DNA of 64,000 nt from Calditrichales bacterium (GCA_965267575.1 OZ254086.1:256001-320000), one strand, 5' to 3'; positions 30,460-54,280 are shown, counted from the first letter of the stretch. Program-made: numbers and translations. Notes: generated by a model from the letters alone, not told the origin.

Positions 30460-30503
30460 GTGTGCTAAGGTGTTAAGGTGTTAAGGTGTTATAGTGTTAA
30501 TGT
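30460..30503 (-). repeat. Degenerate 8-bp tandem array (GTGTTAAG)n
   Basis: GTGCTAAG GTGTTAAG GTGTTAAG GTGTTATA GTGTTAAT. Confidence 0.85.
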
Positions 30504-30546
30504 GCGTCCCACCCTGTCATCTCGAGCGGCCGATCCGGGGCCACGC

Positions 30547-31389
30547 TCATATATCCAATGAATCGGCCGGGCTTTTTATTTTATCGATGGCGCGGGATGA
30601 AACGTGGGTATAAACCTGTGTGGTCTCCAGGCGAACATGCCCCAGCAGTTCCTGGATAAAGCGAATATCGGTGCCATCATCCAGCAGATGTGTAGCAAAG
30701 CTGTGGCGCAGGGTATGCACGGTCGCTTTCTTTTTTATGCCTGCTTTTTGCAGTGCCTGTTTCATAATACTTTGCACGCTTTTATCCGAATAGCGGCCGC
30801 CTTTGGCACCTTCCACCAGGTAATCCTGCGGCTTATATTCTTTAAAGTAGGCACGCAACACGGCAAGGGTTTTCTCCGATAAAACCACATACCTGTCTTT
30901 TTTGCCCTTACCCTGCACCACGTGGATCTTCATGCGTCTGGAATCGATATCAGCAACTTTAAGGTTAAGCAGTTCGCTTAGTCTTAGTCCGGCGGAGTAG
31001 ATAAGCAGCAGGATGGTTTTATGTTTGAGGTTATTGGTTACGGTAAGCAGACGTTTTACCTCTTCTTTGGAGAGCACCACCGGCAATTTTTGCGGTTTTT
31101 TCATTTTAATGTTCAGGGCAGCCGGCACAGGTTTATTAAGAACTTTTTGATACAGGAAGCGGATAGAAGCGATGACTTGTTTCATCGATGAAAACGAATA
31201 TTTTCTTTTCGATTTACAGTGTAACAAATATTCTTCAATCAACATATCTGTCACTTCATCCACTTTTTTAGATGCTACAAATTCCAGAAACAAGGCTAAT
31301 GCTGAAAGATAATTTTTAATGGTTTGCTCAGAATAATTTGCTATGGTAAGTTTGCTCTCAAACGCGCTAAGTATGATTTGTCTTTTCAT
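30547..31389 (-). CDS. Tyrosine recombinase/integrase (SAM-like N-domain), putative cassette integrase lacking the IntI-specific insertion
   Basis: YSEQTIKNY; catalytic R (GLRLSE), K (GKGKKDR), HTLRH, LLGH, Y (TTQVYTH); about 280 aa; divergent from the cassette array. Confidence 0.92.
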   Translation of the reverse strand: MKRQIILSAFESKLTIANYSEQTIKNYLSALALFLEFVASKKVDEVTDMLIEEYLLHCKSKRKYSFSSMKQVIASIRFLYQKVLNKPVPAALNIKMKKPQKLPVVLSKEEVKRLLTVTNNLKHKTILLLIYSAGLRLSELLNLKVADIDSRRMKIHVVQGKGKKDRYVVLSEKTLAVLRAYFKEYKPQDYLVEGAKGGRYSDKSVQSIMKQALQKAGIKKKATVHTLRHSFATHLLDDGTDIRFIQELLGHVRLETTQVYTHVSSRAIDKIKSPADSLDI

Positions 31390-31470
31390 TTTTAACAAGA
31401 TATATTTCGTACTATAAGAAACTAAAACTAGTACATATTCGCGCTATACGCAATCGTATAGCAAGATGTT
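31390..31470 (+). mobile_element. attI-like primary recombination site (copy 1)
   Basis: Conserved with 38133-38213; contains hairpin GCTATACG-caat-CGTATAGC then AAGAT-GTT; similarity between the copies ends at GTTG. Confidence 0.75.
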
Positions 31471-31483
31471 GCCACACATATAA

Positions 31484-32326
31484 ATGAAGAACTTAACGAC
31501 ACCATTAGGACTATTTGGACTTGCTTACCTGATTTACGGGTTAGTAATGAATATTCGAATGTTTACAGAACAAATGTGGCCGACTTATCTGTTCTTCATT
31601 TCAATGGGTATTGGAGTTTTCTTCTTAGCCATAAATAAGTTGACCAAAAGACTTCCTAAGTTTCAATTTTGGCAAATAATAATCGGACTTCTTCCTGTGA
31701 CAGCTTTCTATCTACATATGAAAGTTTGGAATCAAACTCACCCGACTGAGATAGCTGAAAATAGTTTAACAGAAACAAATCACAACTATCATAATGGCGA
31801 CATAATTTTTCAAACGTCAAAGTCTAGCCAAAGTAAAGCCATACAATTAGCGACAAACTCCAAATACAGTCATATGGGAATCATTTACGAAAATGATGGG
31901 CAGTTTTTCGTTTATGAAGCAGTTAAACCCGTGAAATTGTCACCACTCTCAGAATGGATAAATCGTGGAGAAAATGGACATTACGTAATTAAACGACTTG
32001 AAAACGCTGACCAGCTCTTGACCAATTCGACCTTGACCAAAATGAAGCAAATTGGAGAGCAATTTAAAGGGAAACCATATGACATTTACTTTGAGTGGTC
32101 AGACGACAAAATCTATTGCTCTGAACTCGTTTGGAAAATTTACAAGCAAGCAACAGACATTGAAATCGGAGAACTTGAGCAACTATCAGACTTTGACTTA
32201 ACAAATGATATTGTGAAAGCTAAAATGAAAGAAAGATATGGAGACAGTATCCCAATGGACGAAAAAGTGATTTCTCCGGCTGCTATGTTCAATTCAGACA
32301 AACTCGTAACAGTCAAAACCAACTGA
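31484..32326 (+). CDS. YiiX/YebB-family permuted papain-like enzyme with N-terminal membrane domain
   Basis: GDIIFQTS.S.QS.AIQLAT.S.YSHMG, YCSELVWKIY; three N-terminal TM segments. Confidence 0.88.
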   Translation: MKNLTTPLGLFGLAYLIYGLVMNIRMFTEQMWPTYLFFISMGIGVFFLAINKLTKRLPKFQFWQIIIGLLPVTAFYLHMKVWNQTHPTEIAENSLTETNHNYHNGDIIFQTSKSSQSKAIQLATNSKYSHMGIIYENDGQFFVYEAVKPVKLSPLSEWINRGENGHYVIKRLENADQLLTNSTLTKMKQIGEQFKGKPYDIYFEWSDDKIYCSELVWKIYKQATDIEIGELEQLSDFDLTNDIVKAKMKERYGDSIPMDEKVISPAAMFNSDKLVTVKTN

Positions 32327-32328
32327 CA

Positions 32329-32679
32329 ATGAAAAAATGGGTTTTCAGAATATCGATTTTGCTCAACATAGCCTTACTAATTGGCTGGGGTTTAAGCAGT
32401 CTAAATAGACCTTCATACAAATTAGGCCGTTTAGAAAAGGATATTACAGTTGGCAACTTTATGGGAGACTCTCTCTTATTTACGTTACCAAAAGGACTGA
32501 CAGTAAGAAATGCTTCAGAGCGCGGACTAAATGCAATTGGACAGTTTGAAAATAAAAGATTTCAAATCGTAATTTCTTCAGATGATGAACTTGTAAATTA
32601 TGATTTACCACTTGACAGTTTAGGTCCGAATGGCAATTACTATTCGGCTGACTTTGACAAGTATAACAATGAAAAATAA
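32329..32679 (+). CDS. Hypothetical membrane-anchored protein
   Basis: ORF 2 nt after the upstream stop, N-terminal TM, ends just before the attC-like site. Confidence 0.7.
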   Translation: MKKWVFRISILLNIALLIGWGLSSLNRPSYKLGRLEKDITVGNFMGDSLLFTLPKGLTVRNASERGLNAIGQFENKRFQIVISSDDELVNYDLPLDSLGPNGNYYSADFDKYNNEK

Positions 32680-32682
32680 AAA

Positions 32683-32757
32683 ATACGTGTGGCAACAACG
32701 GCTATAGCACATGCCCTTCGGGACACGTGCCATAGCCAAACCGTTGTGCGTCACCCT
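32683..32757 (+). mobile_element. attC-like site 1
   Basis: AAC-aac-GGCTATAGCACATGCCC-ttc-GGGACACGTGCCATAGCC-aaacc-GTT. Confidence 0.8.
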
Positions 32758-32871
32758 GAAAACCCACCGCACATTTAACACATTTGGTTTTTTGCCGACA
32801 CAAAAGCCATCCCTAAAAAACCAAAAGAGCTAAATCACCCACCGCTGACAAAGACGAACTGTTAAAAACTA

Positions 32872-32913
32872 TATTTAAGAATTTGCTTAAATAAGAAACA
32901 ATTTGTATCTTTG
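32872..32913 (+). promoter_or_regulatory. Bacteroidota-type promoter (TTTG-N20-TATCTTTG) overlapped by an ArsR-type operator palindrome
   Basis: TTTG 32882-32885, TATCTTTG 32906-32913; TATTTAAG-N6-CTTAAATA 32872-32893; similar palindrome at 33990-34011. Confidence 0.7.
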
Positions 32914-32992
32914 CTGCGTTATTAAATCCTAAACAGGAAACCGCAAGGTTCAATCTGACTGATTAAAACAATTAAAAAAACAGATTAATATT

Positions 32993-33370
32993 ATGGAAAA
33001 CAATCAATCGTGTATCAGAGTGTTTGCCGACAAGGTTCAAATAGACAATTGTAGAGAAATACTTCAAACCAATGACAAGGCATTCAGCCAACTGAGTGGA
33101 CTTTTAGCATTGGCAGGAAACGAAGTAAGGTTGAAAATCTTATTTCTCTTAGAAGAAGAAAACGAGCTTTGTCCTTGCGACCTTTCAGACATTCTCGGAA
33201 TGAGCATCCCTGCCGTTTCGCAACACCTCAGAAAACTAAAAGACGGAAACGTCATTGAAGGAAGAAGAGAAGGACAGACCATTTTCTACTCTTTGAAACA
33301 AGAGCAACTGACTTTACTTCGACCATTTTTTAAACACATCATAAACAATTCAAAAAAGGAAACAGTATGA
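32993..33370 (+). CDS. ArsR/SmtB-family metalloregulator
   Basis: RLKILFLL..ELCPCDLSDIL.MS.PAVSQHLRKLK; first gene of the mer operon. Confidence 0.92.
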   Translation: MENNQSCIRVFADKVQIDNCREILQTNDKAFSQLSGLLALAGNEVRLKILFLLEEENELCPCDLSDILGMSIPAVSQHLRKLKDGNVIEGRREGQTIFYSLKQEQLTLLRPFFKHIINNSKKETV

Positions 33371-33972
33371 ACAAGAAAAACAACAGACTTGTCGGAGCGG
33401 GAGTACTTTCGGCAGTAGCAGCATCACTTTGCTGCATTACACCTGTATTGGCTCTTATTTCAGGAGCATCAGGCGTGGCATCTACATTTTCGTGGATGGA
33501 ACCAGCAAGACCTTATCTTATCGGTATCACCGTTTTGGTGTTAGGCTTTGCTTGGTATCAGAAACTCAAACCACGAACAGCCGAAGAAATCCAATGTGAT
33601 TGCGAAGATGACGAAAAGAAACCCTTTATGCAGACCAAAACATTTTTGGGAATTGTAACCGTGTTTGCAGCCTTGATGCTCGCTTTTCCAAACTATGCAC
33701 ATATTTTCTATCCTTCAAACGACAATAAGGAAGTTGTAATCGTCAATGCCTCTGACATCCAAACAGTAACTTTTGATGTAAAAGGAATGACTTGCACTGG
33801 TTGTGCTTCACACGTAGAAAATGACGTTAACAAATTACCAAGCATTGTTAAGGTAGATGCGATTTATGAAGAAGCGACTGCCAAAGTAGAATTTGACCAA
33901 ACTAAAGTGAGTGTTGCTCAAATTGAAGAAGCCATCAACGGTACAGGTTACAAAGTGGTTGGCAAGAAATAG
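33367..33972 (+). CDS. merTP: Mercuric transport protein, MerT-MerP fusion
   Basis: AASLCCITP TM Cys pair, cytoplasmic CDC, C-terminal HMA GMTCTGC. Confidence 0.9.
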   Translation: MNKKNNRLVGAGVLSAVAASLCCITPVLALISGASGVASTFSWMEPARPYLIGITVLVLGFAWYQKLKPRTAEEIQCDCEDDEKKPFMQTKTFLGIVTVFAALMLAFPNYAHIFYPSNDNKEVVIVNASDIQTVTFDVKGMTCTGCASHVENDVNKLPSIVKVDAIYEEATAKVEFDQTKVSVAQIEEAINGTGYKVVGKK

Positions 33973-34019
33973 TATTTTTTTGCCTCTCGTATTTAAGAAC
34001 TTAATTAAATAATTACGCA

Positions 34020-34382
34020 ATGAAAAAGAATAATTTGATTCTATTATGTGCTTTGTTCCTTATTCGAATTAGTCAGGTCAATGCTCAATGTTGCAAACCG
34101 ACTGACAATAAAGCACAAACAACAAGTTCGATCCAGCAAGAAGGAAAAACCCTGATAGTGAAAATCACGGGAATGACTTGTGCAGGTTGTTCCAACCATA
34201 TCTCAAATGCCCTCAAAGAAGTGGAGGGAATTATGTAACACAAAGTGGAATATCCGGGCGATTTGGCAATTATTCAATACGACCCGAAGAAAACAAATCC
34301 TGATGCTATCATCAAGGTTATTGAACAGACAGGCTATAAAGCCGAAATCATAAAAGAAACTCAAAAAAAGAAATCATTATGA
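34020..34382 (+). pseudogene. Secreted HMA (MerP-like) metal-binding protein interrupted by an in-frame TAA
   Basis: Signal peptide, GMTCAGC; TAA at 34236-34238; the same frame continues HKVEYPGDLAIIQYDP..IEQTGYKA to a TGA overlapping the merA ATG. Confidence 0.8.
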
Positions 34383-36031
34383 ACAAAGAAACCATAAAAC
34401 TTGACATCACAGGTATGACCTGCGACCACTGTGCCACAAGCATTGAAAAACTACTTTCTAAAAATGAAGGTGTAAAAGAAGCTAATGTGAGCTATCCAAA
34501 AGCCACTTGTGAATGTTCTTTTGACCCTGCCAAAACCAGCAAAGAAGAAATCATCAACACCATCAACGGCACGAAAAACTATCGTGTAAAAAGTGAAATC
34601 CCAGAAAATGGAAGCAGTGGCAAAAACCAATTTGACCTTATAATAATAGGTGGCGGTTCGGCTGCATTTTCGGCAGCTATCAAAGCGGAAAGTTTAGGTC
34701 TATCGACTTTAATGGTAAACGGTGGATTGGACTTTGGCGGGACTTGCGTCAATGTGGGTTGTGTACCTTCTAAAAACCTAATCCGTGCAGGTGAAACTGC
34801 TCATCACGCTACGCATTCCAACTTTGAAGGCATCAAACCAATAGGAGTTGACATTGATTTTGCTCAAATCATCAAAGACAAGAAAAAATTAGTAGCCACA
34901 CTTCAAGAGAAAAAATATATGGATGTGGTGAGCGATTTTGAAAACCTGACTATGTTAAAAGGTTGGGCAAAATTCAAAGACCCAAAAACCATTGTAGTGG
35001 ACGGCAAGGAATATAAAGCCATCAAATTTTTAATAGCCACGGGAGCTACTACCAACATCCCGACTATTGAAAGATTGGACAAAATTGACTATTTGACAAA
35101 TGTTTCTCTTTTCGATTTGGAAGAAAAACCCGAAAGCCTGACCATTATGGGAGCAGGTTACATCGGCTTGGAAATCGCAATGGCTTACAATCGTTTAGGC
35201 GTAAAAGTCCGCATCATTGAATTTACCGACCGAGTATTACGGACACAAACCCCCGACATCAGCGAAGCATTGGAAACCCAAATGCGAAAAGAAGGTATTG
35301 AAATCTTACCAAATTTCAGAGCCGTAAAATTCGAGAAACAAGGAAATGAAACCATCATTCACTGTAAATGTCCTGACGGTTCATTTACGCAAATAGTAGA
35401 AAATGGGAAGGTCGTAATTGCCACAGGAACAAAAGCCAATACAAACCAATTAGGAATAGAAAACATTGGTTTGGAACTCACCAAAAGCGGACATATCGCT
35501 GTAAATGAAAAGATGGAAACTAATCTATCCCACATTTACGCAGCAGGTGACGTAACCAACACCCCTGCATTTGTTTACACAGCCGCCTTTGAAGGAAAAA
35601 TAGCCATTGAAAATGCTTTTTCAGGAACAGAAAACAAAGCCGATTATTCCTCTTTACCTTGGGTAGTTTTTACTGACCCACAAGTTGCAGGTGCAGGTTT
35701 AGACGAAGCACAGGCAGAAGTCAAAGGCATTCCGTTTGAAGTTTCAAAATTGGAACTGAAAGACGTGCCAAGAGCAATTGCAGCAAATGACACAAGGGGA
35801 TTTATCAAACTCATTCGCAACACCGAAACGGACAAATTGATAGGAGCGAGAGTGGTCGCACCCGAAGGCGGAGAACTTATCCAACAATTAAGTATGGCAA
35901 TCAAATACGGAATAACGGTGAAAGACTTAGCAGACAGTTTCTACCCTTATTTGACTTTGGGAGAAGGCATAAAATTAGCAGCCATAACTTTCGGAAAAGA
36001 CGTATCGAAATTAAGTTGCTGTGCCAGTTAA
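34379..36031 (+). CDS. merA: Mercuric reductase
   Basis: N-terminal GMTCDHC, redox GGTCVNVGCVPSK, FYPYLT, C-terminal LSCCAS. Confidence 0.95.
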   Translation: MNKETIKLDITGMTCDHCATSIEKLLSKNEGVKEANVSYPKATCECSFDPAKTSKEEIINTINGTKNYRVKSEIPENGSSGKNQFDLIIIGGGSAAFSAAIKAESLGLSTLMVNGGLDFGGTCVNVGCVPSKNLIRAGETAHHATHSNFEGIKPIGVDIDFAQIIKDKKKLVATLQEKKYMDVVSDFENLTMLKGWAKFKDPKTIVVDGKEYKAIKFLIATGATTNIPTIERLDKIDYLTNVSLFDLEEKPESLTIMGAGYIGLEIAMAYNRLGVKVRIIEFTDRVLRTQTPDISEALETQMRKEGIEILPNFRAVKFEKQGNETIIHCKCPDGSFTQIVENGKVVIATGTKANTNQLGIENIGLELTKSGHIAVNEKMETNLSHIYAAGDVTNTPAFVYTAAFEGKIAIENAFSGTENKADYSSLPWVVFTDPQVAGAGLDEAQAEVKGIPFEVSKLELKDVPRAIAANDTRGFIKLIRNTETDKLIGARVVAPEGGELIQQLSMAIKYGITVKDLADSFYPYLTLGEGIKLAAITFGKDVSKLSCCAS

Positions 36032-36040
36032 TCCGACCCA

Positions 36041-36106
36041 AAGGCACACACTCTTGCAACTCGCACCAGCCAACGCTTGACCAAAAATTGCAAGAGAGAG
36101 TGCCTT
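36041..36106. other. Long imperfect hairpin after merA
   Basis: AAGGCACACACTCTTGCAA ... TTGCAAGAGAGAGTGCCTT. Confidence 0.6.
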
Positions 36107-36159
36107 CCCTACCCCAAAAAATCCTACCTTTGAAAATTGACTAAACCGACTTAAAATAA

Positions 36160-36299
36160 AGGGCGAACGCACAACATTGTGTATAAGCAATAGCGGGTGA
36201 AGTGGTAAATCGAAGGTCTGTGTCTTTTATAAACATTGTGCTAAACTGAAAGTTTTGTACTTTTAAATCCGCTACTGCTCATACACTTGACCGTTAAAC
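36160..36299 (+). mobile_element. attC-like site 2
   Basis: AAC-att-GTGTATAAGCAATAGCGG ... CCGCTACTGCTCATACAC-ttgacc-GTTAAAC. Confidence 0.8.
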
Positions 36300-36636
36300 T
36301 AAAATAAACAACCCAATCATATCCCCCTTCCCCCACACAACTTTCAATAAAATCCGTTATGCCGTCACGAACCGCCAGGGACATATGAATAATGCCGCGT
36401 TTAACCTTCCGGTCAGAACGGCAAAACCACACTGCTGACAGAATGATGCTAAAAGAAGCTGTCACTGGTTCCTCACGGGTGGCAAATCCTGAACCCACGG
36501 GCAACTCTTCCATTCGTAATTTTCACATTCCTAATTCGTAATTGAATACACTTGTATGTTTCCTGTGGCGCAGATATTTTCGGTTTAATTAAATAGCCCA
36601 TAACTACAGGCCGGCTACACGGAAAGCATTCTCATC

Positions 36637-37629
36637 ATGTCCGAAGAAAATAATCTTATGAAAGCCTTTAGATTTAAGAAATACGGGTTGCCCACTGTGC
36701 TTGAGATTGAAGAAGTTGCAAAACCGGTACCGGGCGACGAGGAGGTGCTGGTGAAAATCCACGCCGCTGCCATCAATGACTCGGATTGGGGACTGGTAAG
36801 GGGCAAGCCATTTGTGATTCGTCTGTTCTACGGTCTTAAAAAACCAAAAATAAATATTCCGGGCGTGGATATTTCAGGCAAAGTAGAAGCGCTGGGCAGT
36901 AACGTGAATTCCTTCAAAGTCGGTGATGAGATTTACTGCGACTTGTCGGAATGCGGCTTTGGCGGGTTTGCCGAATATGTGTGTGTTCCGGAAAAAGTAT
37001 TATCCAAAAAGCCTTCCAACATTAGTTTTAATGATGCCGCTGCTCTGCCCCACGCCAGTCTGCTGGCACTTCAGGGACTGGTGGAAAAGGGAAAGGTCAA
37101 ATCCGGACAGAGTGTCCTCATCAACGGTGCCGGGGGAGGTGTGGGCACCCTGGGACTGCAAATCTTAAAATCATACGAGCTCAAAACTACAGGCGTCGAC
37201 AGCGACGAAAAACTTGATATGATGAAAGCGTTGGGATTTGACAACGTGATCGATTATAAAAAGGTGGACTTCACCGAAACCGGAGAAAAGTATGACCTGA
37301 TCCTTGATGCAAAATCAAACAGGTCCGTATTTAAATACGCTCGCTCGCTCAAAAAGAACGGCACTTACGTCACAGTCGGTGGATCGATGTACCGGTTGTT
37401 CGAAATACTATTGCTGGGGTCACTCATTTCGCTTTTCAGCAGCAAGAAGCTGAGCGTACTGGGCCTTAAACCCAATAAGGGACTGGACCGGATTTCCGAT
37501 CTTGTGGAAAAGGGACAAATAAAACCTGTTGTTGACGGCCCCTATAAGTTTGATGAAATCCCGCGGCTGCTTCAATACTTTGGTGAAGGCAGGCACAAGG
37601 GAAAGATTGTGGTTGAAATAAAAAAATAA
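36637..37629 (+). CDS. NAD(P)-dependent alcohol dehydrogenase/quinone reductase (MDR family)
   Basis: EVLVKIHAAAIND.D, GGFAEYV, VLINGAGGGVG, GKIVV. Confidence 0.88.
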   Translation: MSEENNLMKAFRFKKYGLPTVLEIEEVAKPVPGDEEVLVKIHAAAINDSDWGLVRGKPFVIRLFYGLKKPKINIPGVDISGKVEALGSNVNSFKVGDEIYCDLSECGFGGFAEYVCVPEKVLSKKPSNISFNDAAALPHASLLALQGLVEKGKVKSGQSVLINGAGGGVGTLGLQILKSYELKTTGVDSDEKLDMMKALGFDNVIDYKKVDFTETGEKYDLILDAKSNRSVFKYARSLKKNGTYVTVGGSMYRLFEILLLGSLISLFSSKKLSVLGLKPNKGLDRISDLVEKGQIKPVVDGPYKFDEIPRLLQYFGEGRHKGKIVVEIKK

Positions 37630-37653
37630 TGTCACAAAAAACGATATACTCCG

Positions 37654-38085
37654 ATGAATTATCCAGGCTTAAATACCTTCCCTGTTAAAACCTTCGATAA
37701 AATCCGCTATGCCGATACGGACTGCCAGGGGCATGTGAACAATGCCGCTTTTTTGACCTTCCTGGAAACGGGCCGCGTGGAGATTTTATACAACCCCGAA
37801 AACGCCCTTCTCGCGCAAGGGGCCAGCTTTGTCATTGCCTCTCTGAAGCTGGATTTTCTGAAAGAGATCAACTGGCCCGGCCGGGTGGATATCGGCACGG
37901 GGATTTCCAAAATCGGCAACAGCTCGATCACCTTTTACCAGCAGCTGTTTCAAAACGGAGCCTGTGTCGCAAGTGCTGAAACGGTTATTGTGCAGGTAGA
38001 TGACAATAATGGCAAAAGCAAGCCTTTAACGGAGGGCGCAAAGAAAAGGCTGGCCGCTTGGCTGTTGGCCGAGAGCAAAGCCTGA
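37654..38085 (+). CDS. Acyl-CoA thioesterase (4HBT/YbgC hot-dog fold)
   Basis: IRYADTDCQGHVNNA.F..FLETGR. Confidence 0.9.
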   Translation: MNYPGLNTFPVKTFDKIRYADTDCQGHVNNAAFLTFLETGRVEILYNPENALLAQGASFVIASLKLDFLKEINWPGRVDIGTGISKIGNSSITFYQQLFQNGACVASAETVIVQVDDNNGKSKPLTEGAKKRLAAWLLAESKA

Positions 38086-38101
38086 ATGGGTAGAGTAATC
38101 T

Positions 38102-38142
38102 TCAAACGCATCAGGTATGATTTGTTTTTTATTTTTAACAAG
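38102..38142 (-). pseudogene. Frameshifted 5' remnant of a second cassette integrase
   Basis: Aligns to the integrase start (LLKMKRQIILSAFE) with ATG>ATA and a 1-bp deletion. Confidence 0.7.
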
Positions 38143-38213
38143 ATATATTCCGTGTCACACGAAACTAAAACCAATACATATTCGCGTTATACGCATTCGT
38201 ATAGCAAGACGTT
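38133..38213 (+). mobile_element. attI-like primary site (copy 2)
   Basis: TTTTAACAAGATATATT..GAAACTAAAAC.A.TACATATTCGCG.TATACGCA.TCGTATAGCAAGA.GTT shared with 31390-31470. Confidence 0.75.
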
Positions 38214-38279
38214 GGGGGCAATGTAGAAACGAACGACACAGAACAAGGTAAGCCGACAAATTAGAAGTAAATTAGCAGC

Positions 38280-39578
38280 ATGGAAAATGAAGTACAAGAA
38301 CCTCAATTAGAACTCTTCAAAAGAGAGACAAATAATAACGGAAAGGCAGATTTGACTTCAACCTTTGCAGACAACATGAAACTGCCTATTCATAGGTGGT
38401 ACAGGTATACAGCAGGCTTCTCAGGACCTTGGGTAAGAGAATTGATTGAAAGTGAAAATGGACAAAACGTACTCGACCCTTTCGGTGGCTCGGGTACAGT
38501 GATGCTTGAAGGTGAATACGCAGGAATTAATTCAATTGGAATTGAAGCTCATCCTTACGTTTATAGAATCGCAAAGGCAAAACTATCTTGGCAAATAGAC
38601 CCTAAAGATTTCAAAGAATCTGCAAAACAGCTACTCGAAAAAGCTAAGTCAAAGAGAATCGATAAAAAGGAGTATCCTAAACTTATTGAGAAGTGCTATC
38701 CCATTGAAATACTCGAAAAACTTGAAGCATTAAAAGTAGCTTGGATCGAATCAACAGATGACACAATTCTCAAAGAACTCAATTGGTTTGTTATCACAGC
38801 CATTCTCAGAACAACTTCGCCAGTTGGAACTGCACAATGGCAATATATTCAACCTTCAAAGACCAAAGGAAAAGTCATTGATGTGTTTCATGCTTTTGAA
38901 GCTAAGGTGTACGAAATGGCTCAGGACATGCAAAATATGCAAAGACGTTTTCCCAACGCAACAAAGAGCGAAATTTTCATGGAAGATGCCAGACATATGC
39001 CTTCCGTTGCAGACAATTGGGCCGATCTTGTAATAACGTCTCCACCTTACGCTAACAATTATGACTATGCAGATGCGACAAGACTTGAAATGACTTTTTG
39101 GGGAGACATTGATGGATGGGGAGATCTGCAAGAGAAGGTTAGAAAATTTCTTGTAACTGCTTGCACACAACATGTTACTAGCTTAAAGGATAAAGCGTCC
39201 GAGATATTAGAATCGCCATTGTTGACACCAATTAGACAAGAGATTACTGATGTGTTTAATGAATTGGCTGAAACAAGGTTAACTCGGGGTGGCAAAAAGA
39301 ATTATCACTTAATGATAATTGCATATTTCAAAGACCTTGCGGAAGTATTTCACGAGTTAAGAAGAGTAACAAAGAAGGGATGTAAGGTATGTTTTGTCGT
39401 TGGCGACAGTGCTCCATACGGAGTTTATGTGCCAGTCGATAAATGGTTAGGTGAACTTGCAGTTTATGCAGGTTTTGAATCATACGAATTTGAAAAACTT
39501 CGTGATCGTAATACAAAATGGAAAAACAGAAAACATAGAGTCCCTTTGCATGAAGGAAGACTTTGGATAAAAGGATAA
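38280..39578 (+). CDS. Amino-DNA methyltransferase (probably N4-cytosine)
   Basis: HRWYRYTAGFS, motif I VLDPFGGSGT, motif IV DLVITSPPY. Confidence 0.88.
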   Translation: MENEVQEPQLELFKRETNNNGKADLTSTFADNMKLPIHRWYRYTAGFSGPWVRELIESENGQNVLDPFGGSGTVMLEGEYAGINSIGIEAHPYVYRIAKAKLSWQIDPKDFKESAKQLLEKAKSKRIDKKEYPKLIEKCYPIEILEKLEALKVAWIESTDDTILKELNWFVITAILRTTSPVGTAQWQYIQPSKTKGKVIDVFHAFEAKVYEMAQDMQNMQRRFPNATKSEIFMEDARHMPSVADNWADLVITSPPYANNYDYADATRLEMTFWGDIDGWGDLQEKVRKFLVTACTQHVTSLKDKASEILESPLLTPIRQEITDVFNELAETRLTRGGKKNYHLMIIAYFKDLAEVFHELRRVTKKGCKVCFVVGDSAPYGVYVPVDKWLGELAVYAGFESYEFEKLRDRNTKWKNRKHRVPLHEGRLWIKG

Positions 39579-40456
39579 TGGCAAAATCACCAGCACATAA
39601 ATGGGGGCAAATAATAGGAGACTTTCTTGAAGAAGTCTTTGCTACTGAACTTTCAAAGTTTGCCCGAAAACATAAGTTATACTTAGACACTCAAGGCGAC
39701 CGTCCGGCTCGATCAGGGAAAAAGGTGAGTTGGATTGACACATTTGAAAATTCTCATGACTTGGATTTTGTTCTTGAAAGAAATGGAACGAAAAACAAAA
39801 TTGGAGACCCAGTTGCATTCATTGAAAGTGCTTGGAGAAGGTACACCAAGCATTCAAGAAATAAAGCTCAAGAAATCCAAGGTGCTATTTTACCATTAGT
39901 AGCTACACATAAGAATTTTGCTCCTTTTATGGGAGTTATGTTAGCAGGAGAATTTACAGGCGGAGCATTGAATCAATTAAGATCATTAGGCTTCCATGTT
40001 CTTTACTTCCCTTATGATTTGATTCTTCAGGCATATAAAAAGTATGGCATAGATGCAAGCACTGAAGAAAACACGACTGAGAAAGATTTTCAAAATAAAA
40101 TTGACAAGTGGGAGAAATTTGATGATAAAAAGAAGTTGGCCAATTACCTTCTGAGACTGAATAAGGTTGAAGTAGAAACTTTTTTTGAAAGTCTTGAAAA
40201 GGCCGTATCAAGGTATATCGAATCAATTAGTGTTTTGCCTTTGCATGGAGCTTCAAATACTTTGACAACGGTTAAAGAAGCGATAGACTTTATTGAAAGC
40301 TACCAAAACGAAAATGGAAGCCTTCCTGTTTTGAAATACGAAATTGTAGTTCGATACAATAACAAGGACAAGGTTGAAGGTATTTTCAATTCAAAAGAAT
40401 CTGCAATTGAGTTTCTTGAGTCGTATGCTGCTCCTAAACCTAAGGACAAAAAATAA
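39578..40456 (+). CDS. Putative type II restriction endonuclease (PD-(D/E)xK-like)
   Basis: TAATG coupling to the MTase; E..HDLDFVLE..AFIESAWRRYTKHSRNK acidic motif. Confidence 0.7.
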   Translation: MAKSPAHKWGQIIGDFLEEVFATELSKFARKHKLYLDTQGDRPARSGKKVSWIDTFENSHDLDFVLERNGTKNKIGDPVAFIESAWRRYTKHSRNKAQEIQGAILPLVATHKNFAPFMGVMLAGEFTGGALNQLRSLGFHVLYFPYDLILQAYKKYGIDASTEENTTEKDFQNKIDKWEKFDDKKKLANYLLRLNKVEVETFFESLEKAVSRYIESISVLPLHGASNTLTTVKEAIDFIESYQNENGSLPVLKYEIVVRYNNKDKVEGIFNSKESAIEFLESYAAPKPKDKK

Positions 40457-40460
40457 AAAA

Positions 40461-40605
40461 ACACTGCCCCCAACAATGGGTATAAAACATAGGGCGGATA
40501 GTGGTTTCCGCAAATTTCGGGTTCTTAGCAAGCTTAGTCTCGGTGGACAAGTTCGCAGCTCCGAAATGCCCTACGTTTCATACCCGAGACCGTTGTGGCT
40601 AATTT
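40461..40605 (+). mobile_element. attC-like site 3
   Basis: AAC-aat-GGGTATAAAACATAGGGC ... GCCCTACGTTTCATACCC-gagacc-GTT. Confidence 0.8.
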
Positions 40606-41670
40606 AAAACCTGTCGTTCCAGAATTTTATGACAAAGAAAAAAAAGACCTTAATAATCAGAATCCTATTGTTCAGTGGAACGGCAATCTCAATGTTTTTT
40701 GTACCGTGGATATTGGTAAAGGCTTGGATTTTACCCCTACCTGATACAATTCAAGAACAAGTAGATGAAGCAATTGGGCATGGGTTTGATGGAATGGTTG
40801 TCTACATAGACCAAGCGGGAAAACAACCCCAATTTTATACAGGCGGGTGGAAAGATAGAATAAAGAAAATTCCAGCCGACCCAAATTCGCTATTCAAAAT
40901 TGCCAGCATAAGCAAACTTTATACAGCAGTGGCGGCCACCAAGTTGGTCAAAGAAAACCGCTTGTCATTTGACAAAAAACTAACAGATTATCTACCGGAA
41001 CTAAAAGGCAGAATAGAAAATGCTGAAGAAATCACTTTGAAAATGATGATTCAACATCGGTCCGGGATTCCTAATTATACAGATAATCCAGAGTATTGGT
41101 TAGATGAACAAGAGAATGGTAAAAATGCCTTAGATTTTGCCTTAGATTTACCTGCCAGCTTTAAACCAGACAAGGACTATGAATATTCTAACACCAATTA
41201 TTTGTTGCTGCGCAAGATTATGGATAAGGTTTTAGGATACAATCATAACGAATATATCAAAGAAAAAATTTTGAGACCCCTTAACCTTAAAAACACCTTT
41301 TTTTCAATTAACGAAGTGGATTTAGAAGATGTGATGAGTGGTTACTATGTGGGGTATAACGAAGATTTTAAAGCTCGTGAATATGGAATGCTGGCTACAG
41401 CAGAAGATGCTGGTATTTTCTTGCGAGCCTTAAACGAGGGTTCGGTGTTTGACGAGGGAGAAAAGGAAATCTATCCTTATGAATATAATCATGGAGGTTT
41501 GGTAGTCGGCTATCAAAGCCTTGCAGAATATCACCAAGATATTGATGCTGTAATTGTTCAATTTATCAACACTACGGATTTTGAAGGTTATGAATGGAAT
41601 TTATCGGAAATTACAATTAACCGAATTGTGAAAATTTTAAGAAAGAAAAACTAGCCACAACACGGTGTGT
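40592..41670 (+). mobile_element. Gene cassette 4 (serine hydrolase) with truncated attC-like site
   Basis: Starts GTTGTGGCTAATTT; ends AAACTAGCCACAAC (13/14 reverse complement, contains the gene's TAG); only ACGGTGT of the hairpin remains. Confidence 0.7.
40629..41654 (+). CDS. Serine hydrolase, beta-lactamase/D-Ala-D-Ala peptidase fold
   Basis: IASISK (SxxK), YSNTNY (YxN), NHGG. Confidence 0.88.
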   Translation: MTKKKKTLIIRILLFSGTAISMFFVPWILVKAWILPLPDTIQEQVDEAIGHGFDGMVVYIDQAGKQPQFYTGGWKDRIKKIPADPNSLFKIASISKLYTAVAATKLVKENRLSFDKKLTDYLPELKGRIENAEEITLKMMIQHRSGIPNYTDNPEYWLDEQENGKNALDFALDLPASFKPDKDYEYSNTNYLLLRKIMDKVLGYNHNEYIKEKILRPLNLKNTFFSINEVDLEDVMSGYYVGYNEDFKAREYGMLATAEDAGIFLRALNEGSVFDEGEKEIYPYEYNHGGLVVGYQSLAEYHQDIDAVIVQFINTTDFEGYEWNLSEITINRIVKILRKKN

Positions 41671-41795
41671 GTAATTTTGTCTACCTTATGAAAAAGCAAA
41701 AATTAATTATTGTACTACTTTTTGGACTTTCAAATTTATCTATCATTGAAAATTCAATGTCAGTTCGTAGAAGCCCCGATAAAACATAGTAGAAA

Positions 41796-43598
41796 ATGAG
41801 CACCCACATACCCATATCATCCAATAAATCCATTGCGGTTCTCCCCTTTGTTAATATGAGTGCCGACCCAGATAATGAATACTTCAGCGATGGGATTACC
41901 GAAGAAATAATCAACGCCCTAACCACCGTGAAGGGCTTGAAAGTCATTGCCCGCACATCCTCTTTTGCGTTTAAGAATAAAAATATAGATGTGCGAACCA
42001 TTGGTGATCTGTTAGGAGTAAGTACGGTTTTGGAGGGGAGCATCCGGAAAGTCAAAAACAGGGTACGCATTACAGCGCAGTTAATCAGTACGAATGACGG
42101 CACTCACTTCTGGTCGAAAAATTTTGATCGGGATTTGGAGGACATATTTGCACTACAAGATGAAATAAGTTTAAACATTGCAGACCAGATCCGGGAAAAT
42201 TTTGGTCATCTCCATATTCGGGAACATCTGATTGAAGCGCCTACACAAAATATGGAGGCCTACAACCTTTATCTTAAAGGTCGCTACCATCATTTAATGT
42301 GGGACGGACAAGGAATCGCAAATGCAATAGAACTCTATGAACAGTGTGTAGCGATAGACCCCTCATTTGCTTTGCCTTACTTTGGTTTGGCTTATTGTTA
42401 TGCAATGGCCGGATCCTGGGGAAATAATAAAGGCTTATTACAGATGTCAGAAGAGGATCTCAGCAAAGGTTTTAATTTAGACAAACAATCCTACGTAGGG
42501 TATTTCAGTAAAGCGACATTGTCCTTTTGGGGGCAATGGGATTTCATCAAGGGGCATAAATTTTTTCAAAAATCAATAGAGCTGAATCCATCCTATACGG
42601 AAGCAGAAGAAGGTTTATGCGAATTGTATACAGCAGTAGGTTATTTTGAAAAAGCGCACCGGCATACTGATAATATTTTAAAAATAAATCCTTTATCTCC
42701 GAACCATTATTTTACCAAAGCAAATATTTATTATCTAAACGAAGACTACACGAAAGCTTTAGAATGTATAGAGACCTCTTTGAGCATCAATCCGGATTTC
42801 ACACATTCCATCGCATTAAAACAACTTTGTTTAATTCTTTCGAAAGATTACGAAAAGCTAAATGACTTCTTAGGTCAAACCCCTTTGGCCGAGAGACCAG
42901 AAGAATGCAGAGTATTGTACAAGTTGGTCAATCCGGAAGAAAAGATCGATGTTGATATCAGCAGGGTTAGCTTAATGATAAAAGAAGATTCCGGGGGAAC
43001 GCTTTTTCCCTGGCAACTTTTTTTGTTGGTCTATTTGGACAAACACGAAATGGCATTGGACTTTTTGGAAGAAAACATCAGGATGCGTACCGGTCAAATC
43101 ATAAACTTTATGAATATTCCGTTCCTTAAACCCTTGCGCCGGCATAAGCGATTTCAAGATTTAGTACAAGCTGCTTTCGGGGTAGAACTCTTGCCACCTA
43201 ATCCCGAAAAACAAATACGAATTGACCCTCCCAAGACATTGATGTCAGTTACTGAAATCGACAAGCTTTTAGAAATATTAGGAAAGGGAATGAAGGAAGA
43301 AAAGTGGTTTCAAAAGCCATCTTTAACTTTACGCGAGCTGGCCGAAAACCTGACTATTAGCAGTAACCAGCTTTCCTGGTTGCTAAATGAACAAATTGGC
43401 CAAAATTTCAATGAATACATCAATAGTTTTCGTTTGGAGAACTTCAAAGAGAAGGCCCTAAATCCTGCCAATAGCCACCTTACCCTTTTAGCGCTAGCTT
43501 ATGAAAGCGGCTTCACTTCTAAATCGGTATTCAATACCTACTTTAAAAAAACCGAAGGGATGACACCGAAAGCCTGGCTGCGGTCTAATCAAATTTAA
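41796..43598 (+). CDS. AraC-family regulator with N-terminal TolB-like domain and TPRs
   Basis: SIAVLPFVNMS..NEYFSDGITEEIIN, TPR region, C-terminal LAYESGF.SKS.FN.YFKK..GMTP. Confidence 0.88.
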   Translation: MSTHIPISSNKSIAVLPFVNMSADPDNEYFSDGITEEIINALTTVKGLKVIARTSSFAFKNKNIDVRTIGDLLGVSTVLEGSIRKVKNRVRITAQLISTNDGTHFWSKNFDRDLEDIFALQDEISLNIADQIRENFGHLHIREHLIEAPTQNMEAYNLYLKGRYHHLMWDGQGIANAIELYEQCVAIDPSFALPYFGLAYCYAMAGSWGNNKGLLQMSEEDLSKGFNLDKQSYVGYFSKATLSFWGQWDFIKGHKFFQKSIELNPSYTEAEEGLCELYTAVGYFEKAHRHTDNILKINPLSPNHYFTKANIYYLNEDYTKALECIETSLSINPDFTHSIALKQLCLILSKDYEKLNDFLGQTPLAERPEECRVLYKLVNPEEKIDVDISRVSLMIKEDSGGTLFPWQLFLLVYLDKHEMALDFLEENIRMRTGQIINFMNIPFLKPLRRHKRFQDLVQAAFGVELLPPNPEKQIRIDPPKTLMSVTEIDKLLEILGKGMKEEKWFQKPSLTLRELAENLTISSNQLSWLLNEQIGQNFNEYINSFRLENFKEKALNPANSHLTLLALAYESGFTSKSVFNTYFKKTEGMTPKAWLRSNQI

Positions 43599-43813
43599 GC
43601 TGGTTTAAAAGGTGTCAAATCTCACTATAAAGTCCGAAATTACATTTCAGGACGATTCATCTTTCTTTTAACTCCACTTTTGCATCCATCAATTCAGTAA
43701 AGCAGAGTAAATAATCATCGGATGATGATTTCTTTCCTCTTTATCAGATGAACTATCGATAACGGGAGGGGCTTTGTAGAAATCGGAATTTCAAAAAAAG
43801 GAGTCGTATTATC

Positions 43814-44464
43814 ATGAAAAGTCTATTTACAATTTTTTTGTTTTTTTGCACACTTAGTGCTTTTGCTCAGGTTAAATCACCGGAGAGTAATGCAACTGAA
43901 GTTGCCCATGAGTACAGGGTAAGTTTACCTTATTTTGTTCCGGAAGGGCTTATCGTGGATTCCTGGGACGATCGAACAAGTACACGACACTTAGAGCTTC
44001 ATATAAAACGTAACCTGGATAATAAAAATATCATAGGTTTGAAGTTTACCTCCTGGCGATTGTTTCAACCAATGGGAATCACATGGTGGGATGGTCTTTT
44101 AGATAAGCTCGAGACAGAAAGTGAATTCTATCCAGGACATGTGCGAGAAATAGGAATAGGTATAACATACCAGCGTATGCTATGGAAAGGACTATTTGCA
44201 ACTGTTGAAGTTCTACCGCAATTTCAAACCTACTTGGATCTAGACGGTAAAAAAATTGGAAATGATTTTAAACTTTATACGTCGTATCATCTTGGCTACC
44301 ATATCGCATTTGGTGAGGAAAAACGATTTTTTATAGAACCACAAATTAATTGTATGTACTGGATGTTTGACAACAATGCTCCTGATGGATTTAAGCAGCT
44401 GGATGATAAATGGAGAAACTACTTTCTTTTTGAGCCGCAGATTTACTTAGGGATAACATTTTAA
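43814..44464 (+). CDS. Hypothetical exported/outer-membrane protein
   Basis: GGAG RBS, signal peptide, aromatic-rich, C-terminal F. Confidence 0.7.
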   Translation: MKSLFTIFLFFCTLSAFAQVKSPESNATEVAHEYRVSLPYFVPEGLIVDSWDDRTSTRHLELHIKRNLDNKNIIGLKFTSWRLFQPMGITWWDGLLDKLETESEFYPGHVREIGIGITYQRMLWKGLFATVEVLPQFQTYLDLDGKKIGNDFKLYTSYHLGYHIAFGEEKRFFIEPQINCMYWMFDNNAPDGFKQLDDKWRNYFLFEPQIYLGITF

Positions 44465-44493
44465 ACTTAGTCTAACCAACCAGGATTCATAAT

Positions 44494-45108
44494 ATGAAAA
44501 CAATTTTAACAGTATTATCTATCTGCATTTTCCTAAGCAGTAATGTAGCTGCTCAAGTAGAAGAAGAATTTTCTTCATCCAAATCACATTCCCCACTCGG
44601 TGCATTCAAGCATTCTGTTAATATATGTCCTATCGCCCCGGTTTTCGGATTTTATTCGATTAACTATGAATACCTGATTAGTCCGCAGGATGGAATTGTT
44701 GCTCGCTTCGACTATGAAGATGTTCCTGAGACTTACACGGACGCTTCGATAGAGTCAAGTGGTATAGGTTTTACAGTGAATTACCGGAGGTATTTGTATG
44801 GGGAAATAAATTCTATATTTCTTGGAGCTTACACCAGATATAGAATCTACGAAGGAAGTGGTAAGCTAAATTCAAAAAAGTTCGATCTTACCCTAAAATC
44901 TTTTTCTATTGGACTGAACGCAGGAAAACGTTGGGTCTGGAATAGTGGTTTTAATATAGTCTTTTCATTGGGCTATGGAATTGATATAAATAACAGGGAG
45001 GCAAATCCGACTGACAACTCTATTGAATCGATACTTGACCAATTTGAAAAGGAATATGAATTCATGTCCCCGTTTTATGGAGAATTCTCAATCGGTTATA
45101 CATTCTAA
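44494..45108 (+). CDS. Outer-membrane beta-barrel protein (DUF3575-like)
   Basis: Signal peptide; YSINYEY, GKRWVW.SGF, SIGYTF C-terminus. Confidence 0.65.
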   Translation: MKTILTVLSICIFLSSNVAAQVEEEFSSSKSHSPLGAFKHSVNICPIAPVFGFYSINYEYLISPQDGIVARFDYEDVPETYTDASIESSGIGFTVNYRRYLYGEINSIFLGAYTRYRIYEGSGKLNSKKFDLTLKSFSIGLNAGKRWVWNSGFNIVFSLGYGIDINNREANPTDNSIESILDQFEKEYEFMSPFYGEFSIGYTF

Positions 45109-45282
45109 CTCATAAAATCCAATCTTATGGACAAAAAACTACAGAAAGCCGCCTTTTTAAAAATTTGTACATTACCTTTTGCGCGGATATTTTCACTTAA
45201 ACAAAATCCTTAATCCGCGAGGGGATGCACGCCATACGCGCCATACACGCATAGTCCCCATAAAATGGCAGGAAGCATCAGA

Positions 45283-46224: not shown

Positions 46225-46288
46225 AAGCTAAATGCTGTGCCCAAATCCGAATAGAAACTTTATAAAACTTTACTAATCAAAATGATTT

Positions 46289-47785: not shown

Positions 47786-47852
47786 CCGATTGCACATATT
47801 TTAGACACGTCTAAAAAAATCACTAACAATTAAACAATCAAAGGTACATTGT

Positions 47853-48203
47853 ATGGACAACTCAAGAGTATTTAAAATGTCATTTGCCGGCATATACCCG
47901 CATTATATTACCAAGGCGGAGAAAAAGGGACGCACCAAAGAAGACGTGGATACGGTGATCTGCTGGCTTACCGGGTACAACCAAAAAACGCTTCAGCAGC
48001 AAATTGATAAAAAGGTCGATTTAGAAACCTTCTTTACCGAAGCGCCGCAAATCCATCCCAATGTTTCCAAGATCACCGGCGTTATCTGCGGCCACCGCGT
48101 CGAGGACATCGAAGATCCGCTGATGCAGAAAATCCGCTACATGGATAAGCTTGTGGACGAAGTGGGACGCGGTAAAGCCATGGAAAAGATTTTGAGGAAG
48201 TAA
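47853..48203 (+). CDS. DUF2200-family protein
   Basis: [50 protein letters not shown]. Confidence 0.85.
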
Positions 48204-48250
48204 GCGAATATAAAAGGCTGATTATTTTTACCTTATTTTAAAAAAGCTTT

Positions 48251-48760: not shown

Positions 48761-48804
48761 CATAAACACACAATGGCAAAGGACAGACAATCTCATAAAA
48801 TCCA

Positions 48805-49233: not shown

Positions 49234-49249
49234 TCACCCATAATAAAAA

Positions 49250-49275
49250 AGAGACGCAAGATGTTGCGTCTCTAC
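49250..49275 (-). repeat. GTAG-type REP palindrome
   Basis: GTAGAGACGCAACATCTTGCGTCTCT on the - strand. Confidence 0.65.
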
Positions 49276-49283
49276 GTTTAATG

Positions 49284-49388: not shown

Positions 49389-49462
49389 TATATTTCGTTT
49401 CTACTTTTCTTCCCTTCAAGCTCTTCATGTTCTTCATGGTGAAATCTTTTTGATGTGTCTCT

Positions 49463-54279: not shown

Positions 54280-54280
54280 T

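Follow-up and report, generated by a model that had tools for sequence, protein, structure and literature searches.

The locus described here lies in a window of 64,000 nucleotides (nt; "window" denotes this whole stretch of DNA) from the genome of a Calditrichales bacterium (GCA_965267575.1 OZ254086.1:256001-320000), referred to as G000. It comprises a gene for a tyrosine recombinase of 280 amino acids (aa) and, read away from it, a series of gene blocks in a low-GC island at about 31.0-49.3 kb, whose GC content of 35-41% contrasts with about 52% for the host. Judged by sequence comparison, the locus is an integron-type platform: it has a conserved attachment site (attI), attC hairpins of which three are complete and one is truncated, and a further attI copy that keeps a remnant of an integrase gene start (Table 1). 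The original prediction had proposed a distinct gene-capture platform at this place, a proposal supported by the comparative evidence given below.

Four gene blocks were predicted to begin with GTT plus a private sequence and to end in the reverse complement of that sequence. All eight motifs lie where they had been placed, with GTT at 31468, 32743, 38211 and 40592 and the complementary ends finishing at 32696, 36175, 40474 and 41661. Three of the start/end pairs match at 13 of 14 positions, and the fourth matches at 9 of 9 before it decays. The single mismatch of the three 13/14 pairs is always found at position 11, which is an A in the sequence after GTT and a G in the reverse complement of the segment end. 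As a chance control, the 64-kb window was resampled with an order-1 Markov model (n = 200) and searched for 11-nt pairs with at most one mismatch and 300-4500 nt apart. This yielded a mean of 0.975 pairs per 64 kb, compared with three pairs inside 10 kb at this locus, tiled onto the ends of gene blocks. By themselves, the GTT/complement pairs are thus suggestive but short of decisive. Other such pairs occur in the window only at 53465-55348, where they represent inverted copies of an 8-nt tandem repeat element. The cores had also been reported to deviate from the GTTRRRY consensus in three of four cases; none of the four (GTTGCCA, GTTGTGC, GTTGGGG and GTTGTGG) fits it fully.

The four-segment layout stands as regards the pairs but not as regards contiguity, because a complete attC, 1.8 kb of other material and a second attI separate segments 2 and 3. 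The second attI, the complete attC after segment 2, of which just the left arm had been noted, and the truncation of the last attC are additions to the original prediction. The first attI copy ends in an 8-bp hairpin (GCTATACG/CGTATAGC) followed by AAGAT and the GTT, and the two copies in the window share 87% identity (38126-38214 versus 31383-31471). The bottom strand of attC1 folds at -19.2 kcal/mol (z -3.67) and that of attC3 at -24.8 kcal/mol (z -3.06). For attC2, an extent of 36163-36260 was rejected (fold z -0.30), the full site reaching 36295. The attC of cassette 4 breaks off just past its AAC and the remainder is missing: past 41661 a hairpin is absent (z -0.87) and no match is found with the covariance model described below. 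That model also finds no attC that closes the 36296-38101 interruption, which has a GC content of 45-48%, intermediate between cassettes and host. When 12-mers were used to look for the absent terminus of the segment following attC2, one match was obtained elsewhere in the genome, about the chance level.

Table 1. Genes and recombination sites of the locus; positions are counted from the first nucleotide of the window.
Feature	Position	Strand	Description
Tyrosine recombinase	30547-31389	minus	280 aa; PF00589 and PF13495, XerA-type model, IntI4 alignment
attI copy 1	31383-31470	plus	About 88 nt conserved; crossover GTT 31468-31470
Cassette 1	31468-32745	plus	Papain-like enzyme, small protein, attC1
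YiiX-family permuted papain-like enzyme	31484-32326	plus	Cassette 1
Small protein	32329-32679	plus	116 aa; cassette 1
attC1	R'' 32683-32696, GTT 32743-32745	plus	52-nt hairpin site closing cassette 1
Cassette 2	32743-36295	plus	Mercury resistance: regulator, MerTP, MerP-like, MerA, attC2
ArsR/SmtB regulator	32993-33370	plus	Cassette 2
MerTP	33367-33972	plus	NF033556, 290.9 bits; cassette 2
MerP-like gene	34020-34353	plus	In-frame TAA; cassette 2
MerA	34379-36031	plus	TIGR02053, 512 bits; cassette 2
attC2	AAC 36173-36175 to GTT 36293-36295	plus	123 nt, complete; covariance model 127.9 bits, training site
Interruption after attC2	36296-38101	plus	1.8 kb; three genes or gene remnants
Decayed thioesterase fragment	~36330-36430	plus	Interruption; 36292-36402 is 71% identical to 37642-37752
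Zinc-dependent dehydrogenase-like gene	36637-37629	plus	Interruption
Acyl-CoA thioesterase gene	37654-38085	plus	Interruption
Integrase gene-start remnant	38102-38136	minus	About 35 nt; beside attI copy 2
attI copy 2	38126-38213	plus	GTT at 38211
Cassette 3	38211-40594	plus	Type II restriction-modification pair, attC3
Type II methyltransferase	38280-39578	plus	PADLOC MTase_II, 448.9 bits; cassette 3
Type II endonuclease	39563-40456	plus	PADLOC REase_II, 238.3 bits; cassette 3
attC3	R'' 40461-40474, GTT 40592-40594	plus	123 nt; cassette 3
Cassette 4	40592-41675	plus	Serine hydrolase, then R'' 41648-41661
Serine hydrolase	40629-41654	plus	Beta-lactamase/penicillin-binding protein fold; cassette 4

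The recombinase reading frame starts at ATG 31389, with the open frame extending to TTG 31398. As had been predicted, the protein carries an intact R-K-HxxR-H-Y set, with R136, K161, H225, R228, H251 and Y260 being invariant or nearly so in 30 homologues. Its Pfam domains are Phage_integrase (PF00589, 144.1 bits) and a SAM-like N-terminal domain (PF13495). The only curated model whose cut-off it exceeds is the XerA-type NF040815 (240.1 bits, cut-off 220), which carries the product name 'site-specific tyrosine recombinase/integron integrase' at NCBI, while the XerC (203 bits, cut-off 335.15) and XerD (202.7 bits, cut-off 329.6) models are both missed. The closest solved structures by sequence are XerA (5hxy, E 9.7e-48) and IntI4 (2a3v). 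The absence of a clear IntI match, foreseen by the original prediction, was borne out with two models: with the integron integrase model TIGR02249 the protein reaches 221.5 bits, short of the cut-off of 265, and aligns in two separate stretches, and with NF011946 it reaches 148.4 bits, the cut-off being 435. The absence of the IntI insertion was seen in two alignments. The IntI4 alignment falls into two pieces, with residues 183-205 of the query facing IntI4 residues 179-244, so that about 43 residues are absent, and in the same columns of a 44-row alignment IntI1 has 99 residues, about 42 more than the window protein, which like its 42 relatives has 57 or 58. By these alignments, the additional domain of IntI, about 35 residues near patch III that contain the I2 helix, is absent from the window recombinase, and by the usual criteria the protein would not be classed as an IntI, as the insert is missing and its scores lie below both NCBI cut-offs. 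A TIGR02249 search of G000 found no canonical IntI, the window recombinase being the sole match at 127.6 bits, and two further Xer-like genes elsewhere in the genome share 35% identity with it. GC content at third codon positions (GC3) is 0.30 in the first 40 codons of the recombinase gene and about 0.55 from codon 121, compared with 0.72-0.76 in host genes, and DNA identity to the orthologue in genome G003 peaks at the 5' end. The gene may be a mosaic whose 5' end was exchanged more recently together with attI.

Relatives of about 280 aa are abundant. Among 8000 scored candidates, 7587 fall at E<=1e-20, and 3937 cluster representatives were obtained at E<=1e-30. Scanning species genomes identified 256 relatives, and the sources of the 80 best include Calditrichota, Balneolaceae, Marinimicrobia, Ignavibacteria, Cytophagales and Flavobacterium. 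The distribution is patchy, with an orthologue (E<=1e-40) in 15 of 41 related genomes including G000, and in 13 of the 28 high-quality ones. Many relatives with 45-50% identity (P0124-P0270) have N-terminal extensions of 80-390 residues, giving total lengths of 350-670 aa.

Hairpin candidates around these genes were first collected with a simple AAC...GTT stem finder. Used alone, this ungapped finder gave 95 upstream versus 51 candidates, a twofold excess only, and it was superseded by a covariance model (R1) built from the bottom strands of 35 sites of the 118-127-nt class with own-cassette support. Scanning 85 sources (1.32 Mb) with R1 at E<=1e-5 identified 142 matches in 51 sources; 107 of the matches are non-training sites, and 29 of the 51 sources contributed no training site at all. 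In the window, R1 recovers two training sites and, from outside the training set, attC1 (50.1 bits, E 3.8e-11); two more matches lie elsewhere in G000. Orientation is fixed relative to the recombinase gene in 141 of the 142 matches: 102 lie upstream of the gene and have their bottom strand on its coding strand, as in the window, 39 lie downstream in the opposite sense (Flavobacterium, metagenome-assembled genomes of Cytophagales, and others) and one is placed otherwise. At least one R1 match was found in 39 of the 44 loci with at least 3 kb on both flanks, compared with a single match when seven flanks of the phylum's canonical IntI genes were scanned. Genome G003 contains an orthologue and five R1 matches, and the whole genomes G011, G082 and G042 contain neither an orthologue nor a match. 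The original prediction had proposed a scan for such arrays next to homologous recombinases, and judged by these matches the pairing of recombinase and array is a trait of the family that recurs in many bacterial lineages.

Particular arrays show further features. On a 66-kb plasmid of a Chryseobacterium sp. (L140, 8770-17479), a plasmid-borne system consists of a 347-aa recombinase with an N-terminal extension and four attC matches (35.5-88.8 bits) downstream of it, and the array contains an IS110 transposase gene and a group II intron. Three Balneolaceae arrays (L003, L021 and L030) contain an element of about 95 nt without an open reading frame with several copies, both inside one array and in different arrays (in L021, for instance, at finder coordinates 1549-1641, 3976-4068 and 4694-4786), and in the same arrays many neighboring attC sites have the same following arm in common. 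The 52-nt attC of cassette 1 (window 32680-32759) is nearly identical in L004, L019, L026 and L029, which are from Balneola, Marinimicrobia and Rhodothermia. This suggests that attC types may be shared across phyla.

The R1-type sites have a consistent secondary structure. In the model-fitted alignment, 92.6% of cells form standard pairs, a value not reached in any of 500 shuffles (67.6% after shuffling), and slid-alignment controls give 31-54% pairing. Two-sided changes are seen in 17 of the 22 attC stem pairs. The site architecture comprises an R stem of 11-14 bp, an asymmetric bulge of 5-6 versus about 3 nt and a long L stem; spacers most often measure 5 or 6 nt at R' but 3 nt at R''. The three attC stems of the window run uninterrupted over at least 16 bp, with no bulged bases seen. 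Of the 142 sites, 136-139 retain the AAC and GTT columns, 12 fit the GTTRRRY consensus and 7 fit RYYYAAC. Within its own site, the R arm is unpaired, a match of at least 8 of 12 positions being found in only 2 of 142 sites. Across a cassette, however, R arms match at 8 or more of 12 positions in 56 of 91 consecutive site pairs, compared with 48 of 2000 random pairs.

The two strands of a site are not equivalent. At two positions of the stem, a G.U pair is present in 135 and 136 of the 142 sites, respectively. In all 49 cassettes (20 sources) with at least 9 of 12 matches between R arms, the 8th position beyond the triplet is a non-Watson-Crick pair, and in 47 of these a T stands opposite a G on the bottom strand, corresponding to an A.C mismatch on the top strand. 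This R-stem T.G wobble is identical to the position-11 mismatch of the window pairs. In 103 of 142 sites the bottom strand folds more stably than the top strand, with a mean advantage of 1.7 kcal/mol. Because the fixed G.T wobbles pair on the bottom strand only, this strand is probably the one used.

The original prediction had further expected gain and loss of cassettes at the GTT points, and several comparisons agree with this. Four attI copies, three from G000 and one from G003, agree through GTT(G) and then diverge. In Flavobacterium-type loci, a conserved motif ending in GAGTT is found about 150-170 nt past the recombinase stop codon, beyond which sequences differ. A homologue of cassette 4 (67% aa identity) lies between two attC matches in a Balneola locus (L009), where DNA homology starts at the TT of (G/A)TTGTGG, with A replacing G, and fades just after AAC. 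An arsR-merTP gene pair also occurs inside Flavobacterium arrays. Other public sequencing runs were searched as contigs, which show presence and joints only. The mercury resistance cassette is present in contigs of other runs at 90-99% identity, with alignments starting at 32743 (run X21), 32737 (X5) and 32759 (X9), and ahead of 32743 or 32737 contigs have loose ends whose sequence is unlike that of the window. On the opposite side, homology ends at 36286, followed by a spacer, GTT and unlike sequence, and in another run it ends at 36296. Contigs of X9 contain parts of cassette 3, parts of attC3 also recur in other runs, and run X6 has a loose end with unlike sequence behind 40594. In run X21, which has the same species label as the window, only the mercury resistance cassette and a few flank pieces of less than 60 nt were found, and no conclusion on strain variation is drawn. 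The 90-99% identity elsewhere points to a recent exchange of cassettes 2 and 3.

A tree of 69 proteins was calculated from 279 columns under LG+G4 with insertion columns dropped, using the genome's two Xer genes as root; its sampling was chosen by us and its root of two sequences is thin. Insert-less proteins and IntI are separated together from Xer with 100/100 support, and all 20 IntI rows group in a single clade (100/100), which has a long stem and is placed among insert-less lineages. On this tree, canonical IntI proteins are one clade closest to the insert-less family. The insert-less rows are monophyletic in 0 of 200 bootstrap trees, but a sister relation is not rejected by the approximately unbiased test (p = 0.382), so that the tree cannot choose between a nested and a sister position of IntI. 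Canonical IntI exceeding the TIGR02249 cut-off occurs in 41 of 86 genomes of the phylum, at 450-488 bits, one of them being 53% identical to IntI1. In one contig (L116, G035:C165, 300-2445), a 284-aa insert-less gene, 36% identical to that of the window, is divergent from a canonical 319-aa IntI gene at a distance of 332 nt, and its protein is placed next to the IntI clade in the tree.

The locus is probably, at a rough estimate of 80%, a chromosomal integron-type gene-capture platform run by an insert-less integrase family of about 280 aa that is nearest to IntI. This interpretation builds on the observed anatomy of the locus, the association of the family with arrays in fixed orientation, the covariation of the hairpins, the complementarity within each cassette and the recurrence of cassettes with ends at GTT. 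The recombinase gene would be read away from a conserved attI, and circular cassettes would be inserted at G|TT of this site and leave again through exchange of attC with attC or of attI with attC. As an outcome, each cassette would consist of TT plus a private sequence, followed at its other end by the complement and AAC and then the rest of the attC hairpin. The attC would be used as a folded bottom strand with an architecture of an 11-14 bp R stem with T.G wobble, a bulge of 5-6 versus about 3 nt and a long L stem. The exchange would be catalyzed by the window recombinase, and the wobbles may stand in for extrahelical bases in strand choice. The missing domain and the different attC architecture suggest that hairpins may be recognized in another mode than in classical integrons.

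Several observations weigh against this interpretation. As canonical IntI is common in the phylum, action in trans is possible for some arrays. In the classical system, the additional domain has been described as necessary for activity (Messier and Roy 2001, as cited in the accessible text of PMC9668308 and PMC4889954). The pairing statistics come from an alignment (A4) that was fitted to the structure, and related sites inflate the pair counts. An uninterrupted L stem of at least 13 bp is found in only 62 of 142 sites, the others containing mismatches (1x1 in some) that may include extrahelical bases. Of the R1 matches, 35 are training sites, and five of the 44 two-flank loci (L025, L040, L066, L067 and L069) have no R1 match. 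Finally, genome G065 contains two R1-type sites but no orthologue.

Three other explanations were considered. The platform of G000 could be a fossil, that is, a formerly active and now decaying remnant inherited vertically, which we regard as unlikely even though the platform is, by its sequence, partly decayed. Signs of decay include the second attI with its deleted integrase gene, the cut attC4, the thioesterase fragment, the in-frame stop of the MerP-like gene, the GC3 gradient along the recombinase gene and a third attI remnant with two cassettes but no recombinase. This third, more diverged attI-like stretch lies elsewhere in the genome (G000:C1:2695997-2698300, corresponding to L138 9998-12290, minus strand). 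There, attI and GTT are followed by a paralogue of cassette 1, encoding a papain-like enzyme and a small protein, and by a second cassette that encodes a restriction-endonuclease-like protein; two attC matches are present, and the cluster adjoins a type III restriction-modification locus. Against a fossil stand an undisrupted recombinase frame with every catalytic residue present, a GC content of the cassettes far from that of the host, and the 90-99% identity of cassettes 2 and 3 to contigs of other runs, which argues for recent exchange.

Much less probable is an origin of these sites as ordinary attC-site clusters without integron-integrases (CALIN), built by a canonical IntI that acts in trans or has since been lost, with the insert-less recombinase as a bystander or degenerate IntI. 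The frequency of canonical IntI in the phylum, the presence of both recombinase types in G003 and the orphan sites of G065 would fit such an origin. It is at odds with the lack of a canonical IntI in G000, as searched with TIGR02249, and with the joint travel of recombinase gene and attI, whose divergence begins exactly at GTT. Nor would it account for the near-invariant orientation of sites to the insert-less gene, the near-absence of R1 matches from canonical IntI flanks, or the family's thousands of intact proteins of about 280 aa, in which the catalytic residues are conserved. A double-strand Xer/dif-like module system comparable to Acinetobacter pdif modules or integrative mobile elements exploiting Xer recombination (IMEX), with duplex core exchange and incidental hairpins such as terminators, is the least probable of all, since the XerA-type best model, the XerA nearest structure and an attI that might be a duplex site have to be set against stem covariation in 17 of 22 pairs, G.T wobbles on one strand only (136/142, 135/142 and, in the R stem, 47/49), a crossover that, as in attC, is located at the far end of a palindrome of 50-190 nt and not in the middle of a 28-bp site, direct orientation of array sites and the retention of two other Xer-like genes.

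The integron-type platform proposed here shares with canonical integrons (IntI1, VchIntIA/IntI4) the divergent integrase gene, the attI, the one-directional array and the G|TT crossover. The attC is likewise an imperfect palindrome at the 3' end of the cassette, the first bases of which pair with its own R'', and the bottom strand folds better. Cargo also resembles that of canonical integrons (metal resistance, restriction-modification and hydrolases), and the two kinds of integrase are mutually closest relative to the genome's Xer proteins. Differences from canonical integrons are the lack of about 42 additional-domain residues and scores below the curated IntI cut-offs. Classical attC sites have extrahelical bases and an unpaired central spacer. 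The sites described here differ from them in the R stem, which has 11-14 bp and a fixed T.G instead of 7 bp, in the asymmetric bulge and in the rarity of GTTRRRY, a contrast based on general descriptions of classical sites plus one array. The Flavobacterium/Chryseobacterium-type loci, in which the recombinase is read toward the array (39 downstream matches), resemble the inverted-integrase integrons of Spirochaetes, Chlorobi and others. Those carry the additional domain according to the accessible part of PMC4889954, whereas both orientations occur here in one insert-less family.

Archaeal XerA (NF040815; 5hxy, 4a8e) is the best curated model and structure match and has the same length and no insertion. 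XerA resolves chromosome dimers at dif. Unlike XerA, the recombinase family is patchily distributed, lies beside attI and arrays and coexists in G000 with two Xer-like genes; dif was not searched for. Under the IntegronFinder definition of an integron (PF00589 plus intI_Cterm), as given in the accessible text of PMC4889954 and PMC9024848, the window array would be a CALIN at best. The two-cassette clusters without a nearby recombinase at 2.696 Mb of G000 and in G065 do resemble CALIN, but the arrays described here come with a specific family of recombinases and with a conserved attI. In Acinetobacter pdif modules, too, sites of an Xer-related recombinase lie on either side of genes. The pdif sites are 28-bp duplexes in inverted pairs (in line with the accessible part of PMC7399989), in contrast to the 50-190-nt covarying hairpins found here in direct order with a dedicated recombinase. 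The system is best filed as an integron variant, as it would work like an integron but fails the integrase-domain and core-consensus tests.

A truncated member of the family also occurs next to an antibiotic resistance gene. On the Acinetobacter indicus plasmid p80-1-2-tetX3 (L139, 5052-7222), the 'xerD' or 'delta-tpnF' gene, names used beside tet(X3) in the accessible text of PMC8635130, is a 5'-truncated family member with 53.8% identity to residues 43-280 of the window recombinase. It is read toward tet(X3), with an attI-like hairpin and GTT upstream of the tet(X3) start, and a weak attC-like match (14.7 bits, E 0.039) lies in the 148-nt gap after the gene. This context differs from the window in the truncation of the recombinase gene, the presence of a single gene instead of an array, the movement of the segment by ISCR2 and the weakness of the attC match. 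An integron-type interpretation of the tet(X3) context is our own and would be a lead only.

In the literature searched, which did not include subscription journals and supplements, no paper was found that ties insert-less recombinases to attC-type arrays; a paper on miniature inverted-repeat transposable elements (PMC11602168) contains nothing on the recombinase-array pairing. The accessible parts of Cury et al. 2016 (PMC4889954) report 50 recombinases with PF00589 only near attC sites, among them four IntI/Xer intermediates, each with fewer than three sites, and conclude that such proteins do not represent IntI; members of the insert-less family may be contained in Supplementary Figure S1 of that study. 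Smyshlyaev et al. 2021 describe the insertion as 'not fully conserved' in an integron-like subgroup, at least in the accessible part of PMC8138268. In the available sections of PMC7790495, PMC4889954 and PMC9668308, the additional domain is treated as defining the integrase, and its gain as the step that opened single-strand attC recombination. Under such a domain-based definition, search tools discard insert-less recombinases. Bacteroidota and other groups have been counted as nearly integron-free (accessible text of PMC9024848 and of the 2024 preprint 10.1101/2024.07.02.601686), and the same portion of the preprint lists Bacteroidota among clades earlier found without integrons.

Other observations on the window and its surroundings concern individual genes and repeats. 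In the MerP-like gene of cassette 2, the TAA is located at 34236-34238 and the rest of the domain follows in frame, Pfam HMA being matched on the first part only. The cassette 4 hydrolase gene is not classed as a resistance gene, the class C beta-lactamase model giving 77.6 bits against a cut-off of 415. A sigma-70 scan found a 9/12 site at 31378-31406 facing the array, no better than in shuffles, and no Rfam family matches the locus at E<=0.1. Past the last R'', a low-GC gene run in the same direction extends for 7.6 kb (41676-49300) and encodes a TPR/AraC regulator, outer-membrane-like proteins, a dehydrogenase, a second beta-lactamase-fold protein, DUF2200, SH3 and DUF1801. Two genes of this run, near 45110 and 48790, are preceded by a 14-nt motif. 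With the covariance model, no attC was found at 41.7-49.3 kb at E<=1, and this low-GC remainder was not assigned to the array. The 11-nt word TGTCATCTCGA is found at both island ends (30514-30525 and 49283-49390), at the right end as an inverted repeat of about 100 nt. With 23 genome copies compared with about two expected by our own estimate, it is assigned to a repeat family. Repeats of 8 nt in tandem, of the GTGTTAAG/GTGTTATT type, are located at 30461-30495, between an oxidoreductase gene and the recombinase stop codon, and in inverted orientation at 53455-53488 and 55320-55352 around a TetR/LolA-like gene pair. The genome contains 11 copies of one such 17-mer.

Beyond the window, we put at about even odds a joint hypothesis of a second, ancient integron class across the Fibrobacteres-Chlorobi-Bacteroidetes group and its neighbors. 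Its integrase would never have had, or would do without, the I2 helix and additional domain, fixed G.T wobbles in place of extrahelical bases would set the strand, and the family would be the sister of IntI or the stock from which it arose; the tet(X3) 'xerD' would be a truncated member and tet(X3) a former first cassette. The range of this class would include Calditrichota, Balneolales, Marinimicrobia, Ignavibacteria, Cytophagales and Flavobacteriales, with chromosomal members and at least one that is plasmid-borne. If true, hairpin cassette capture would predate the domain now seen as its key innovation.

An insert-less family with covarying arrays would widen the known reach of cassette capture. 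It would offer a natural comparison for attC hairpin recognition and make the origin of integrons testable in harmless cultured hosts such as Flavobacterium, Bernardetia and Stygiobacter. It may also account for the native context of some resistance genes that reached pathogens from Flavobacteriaceae.

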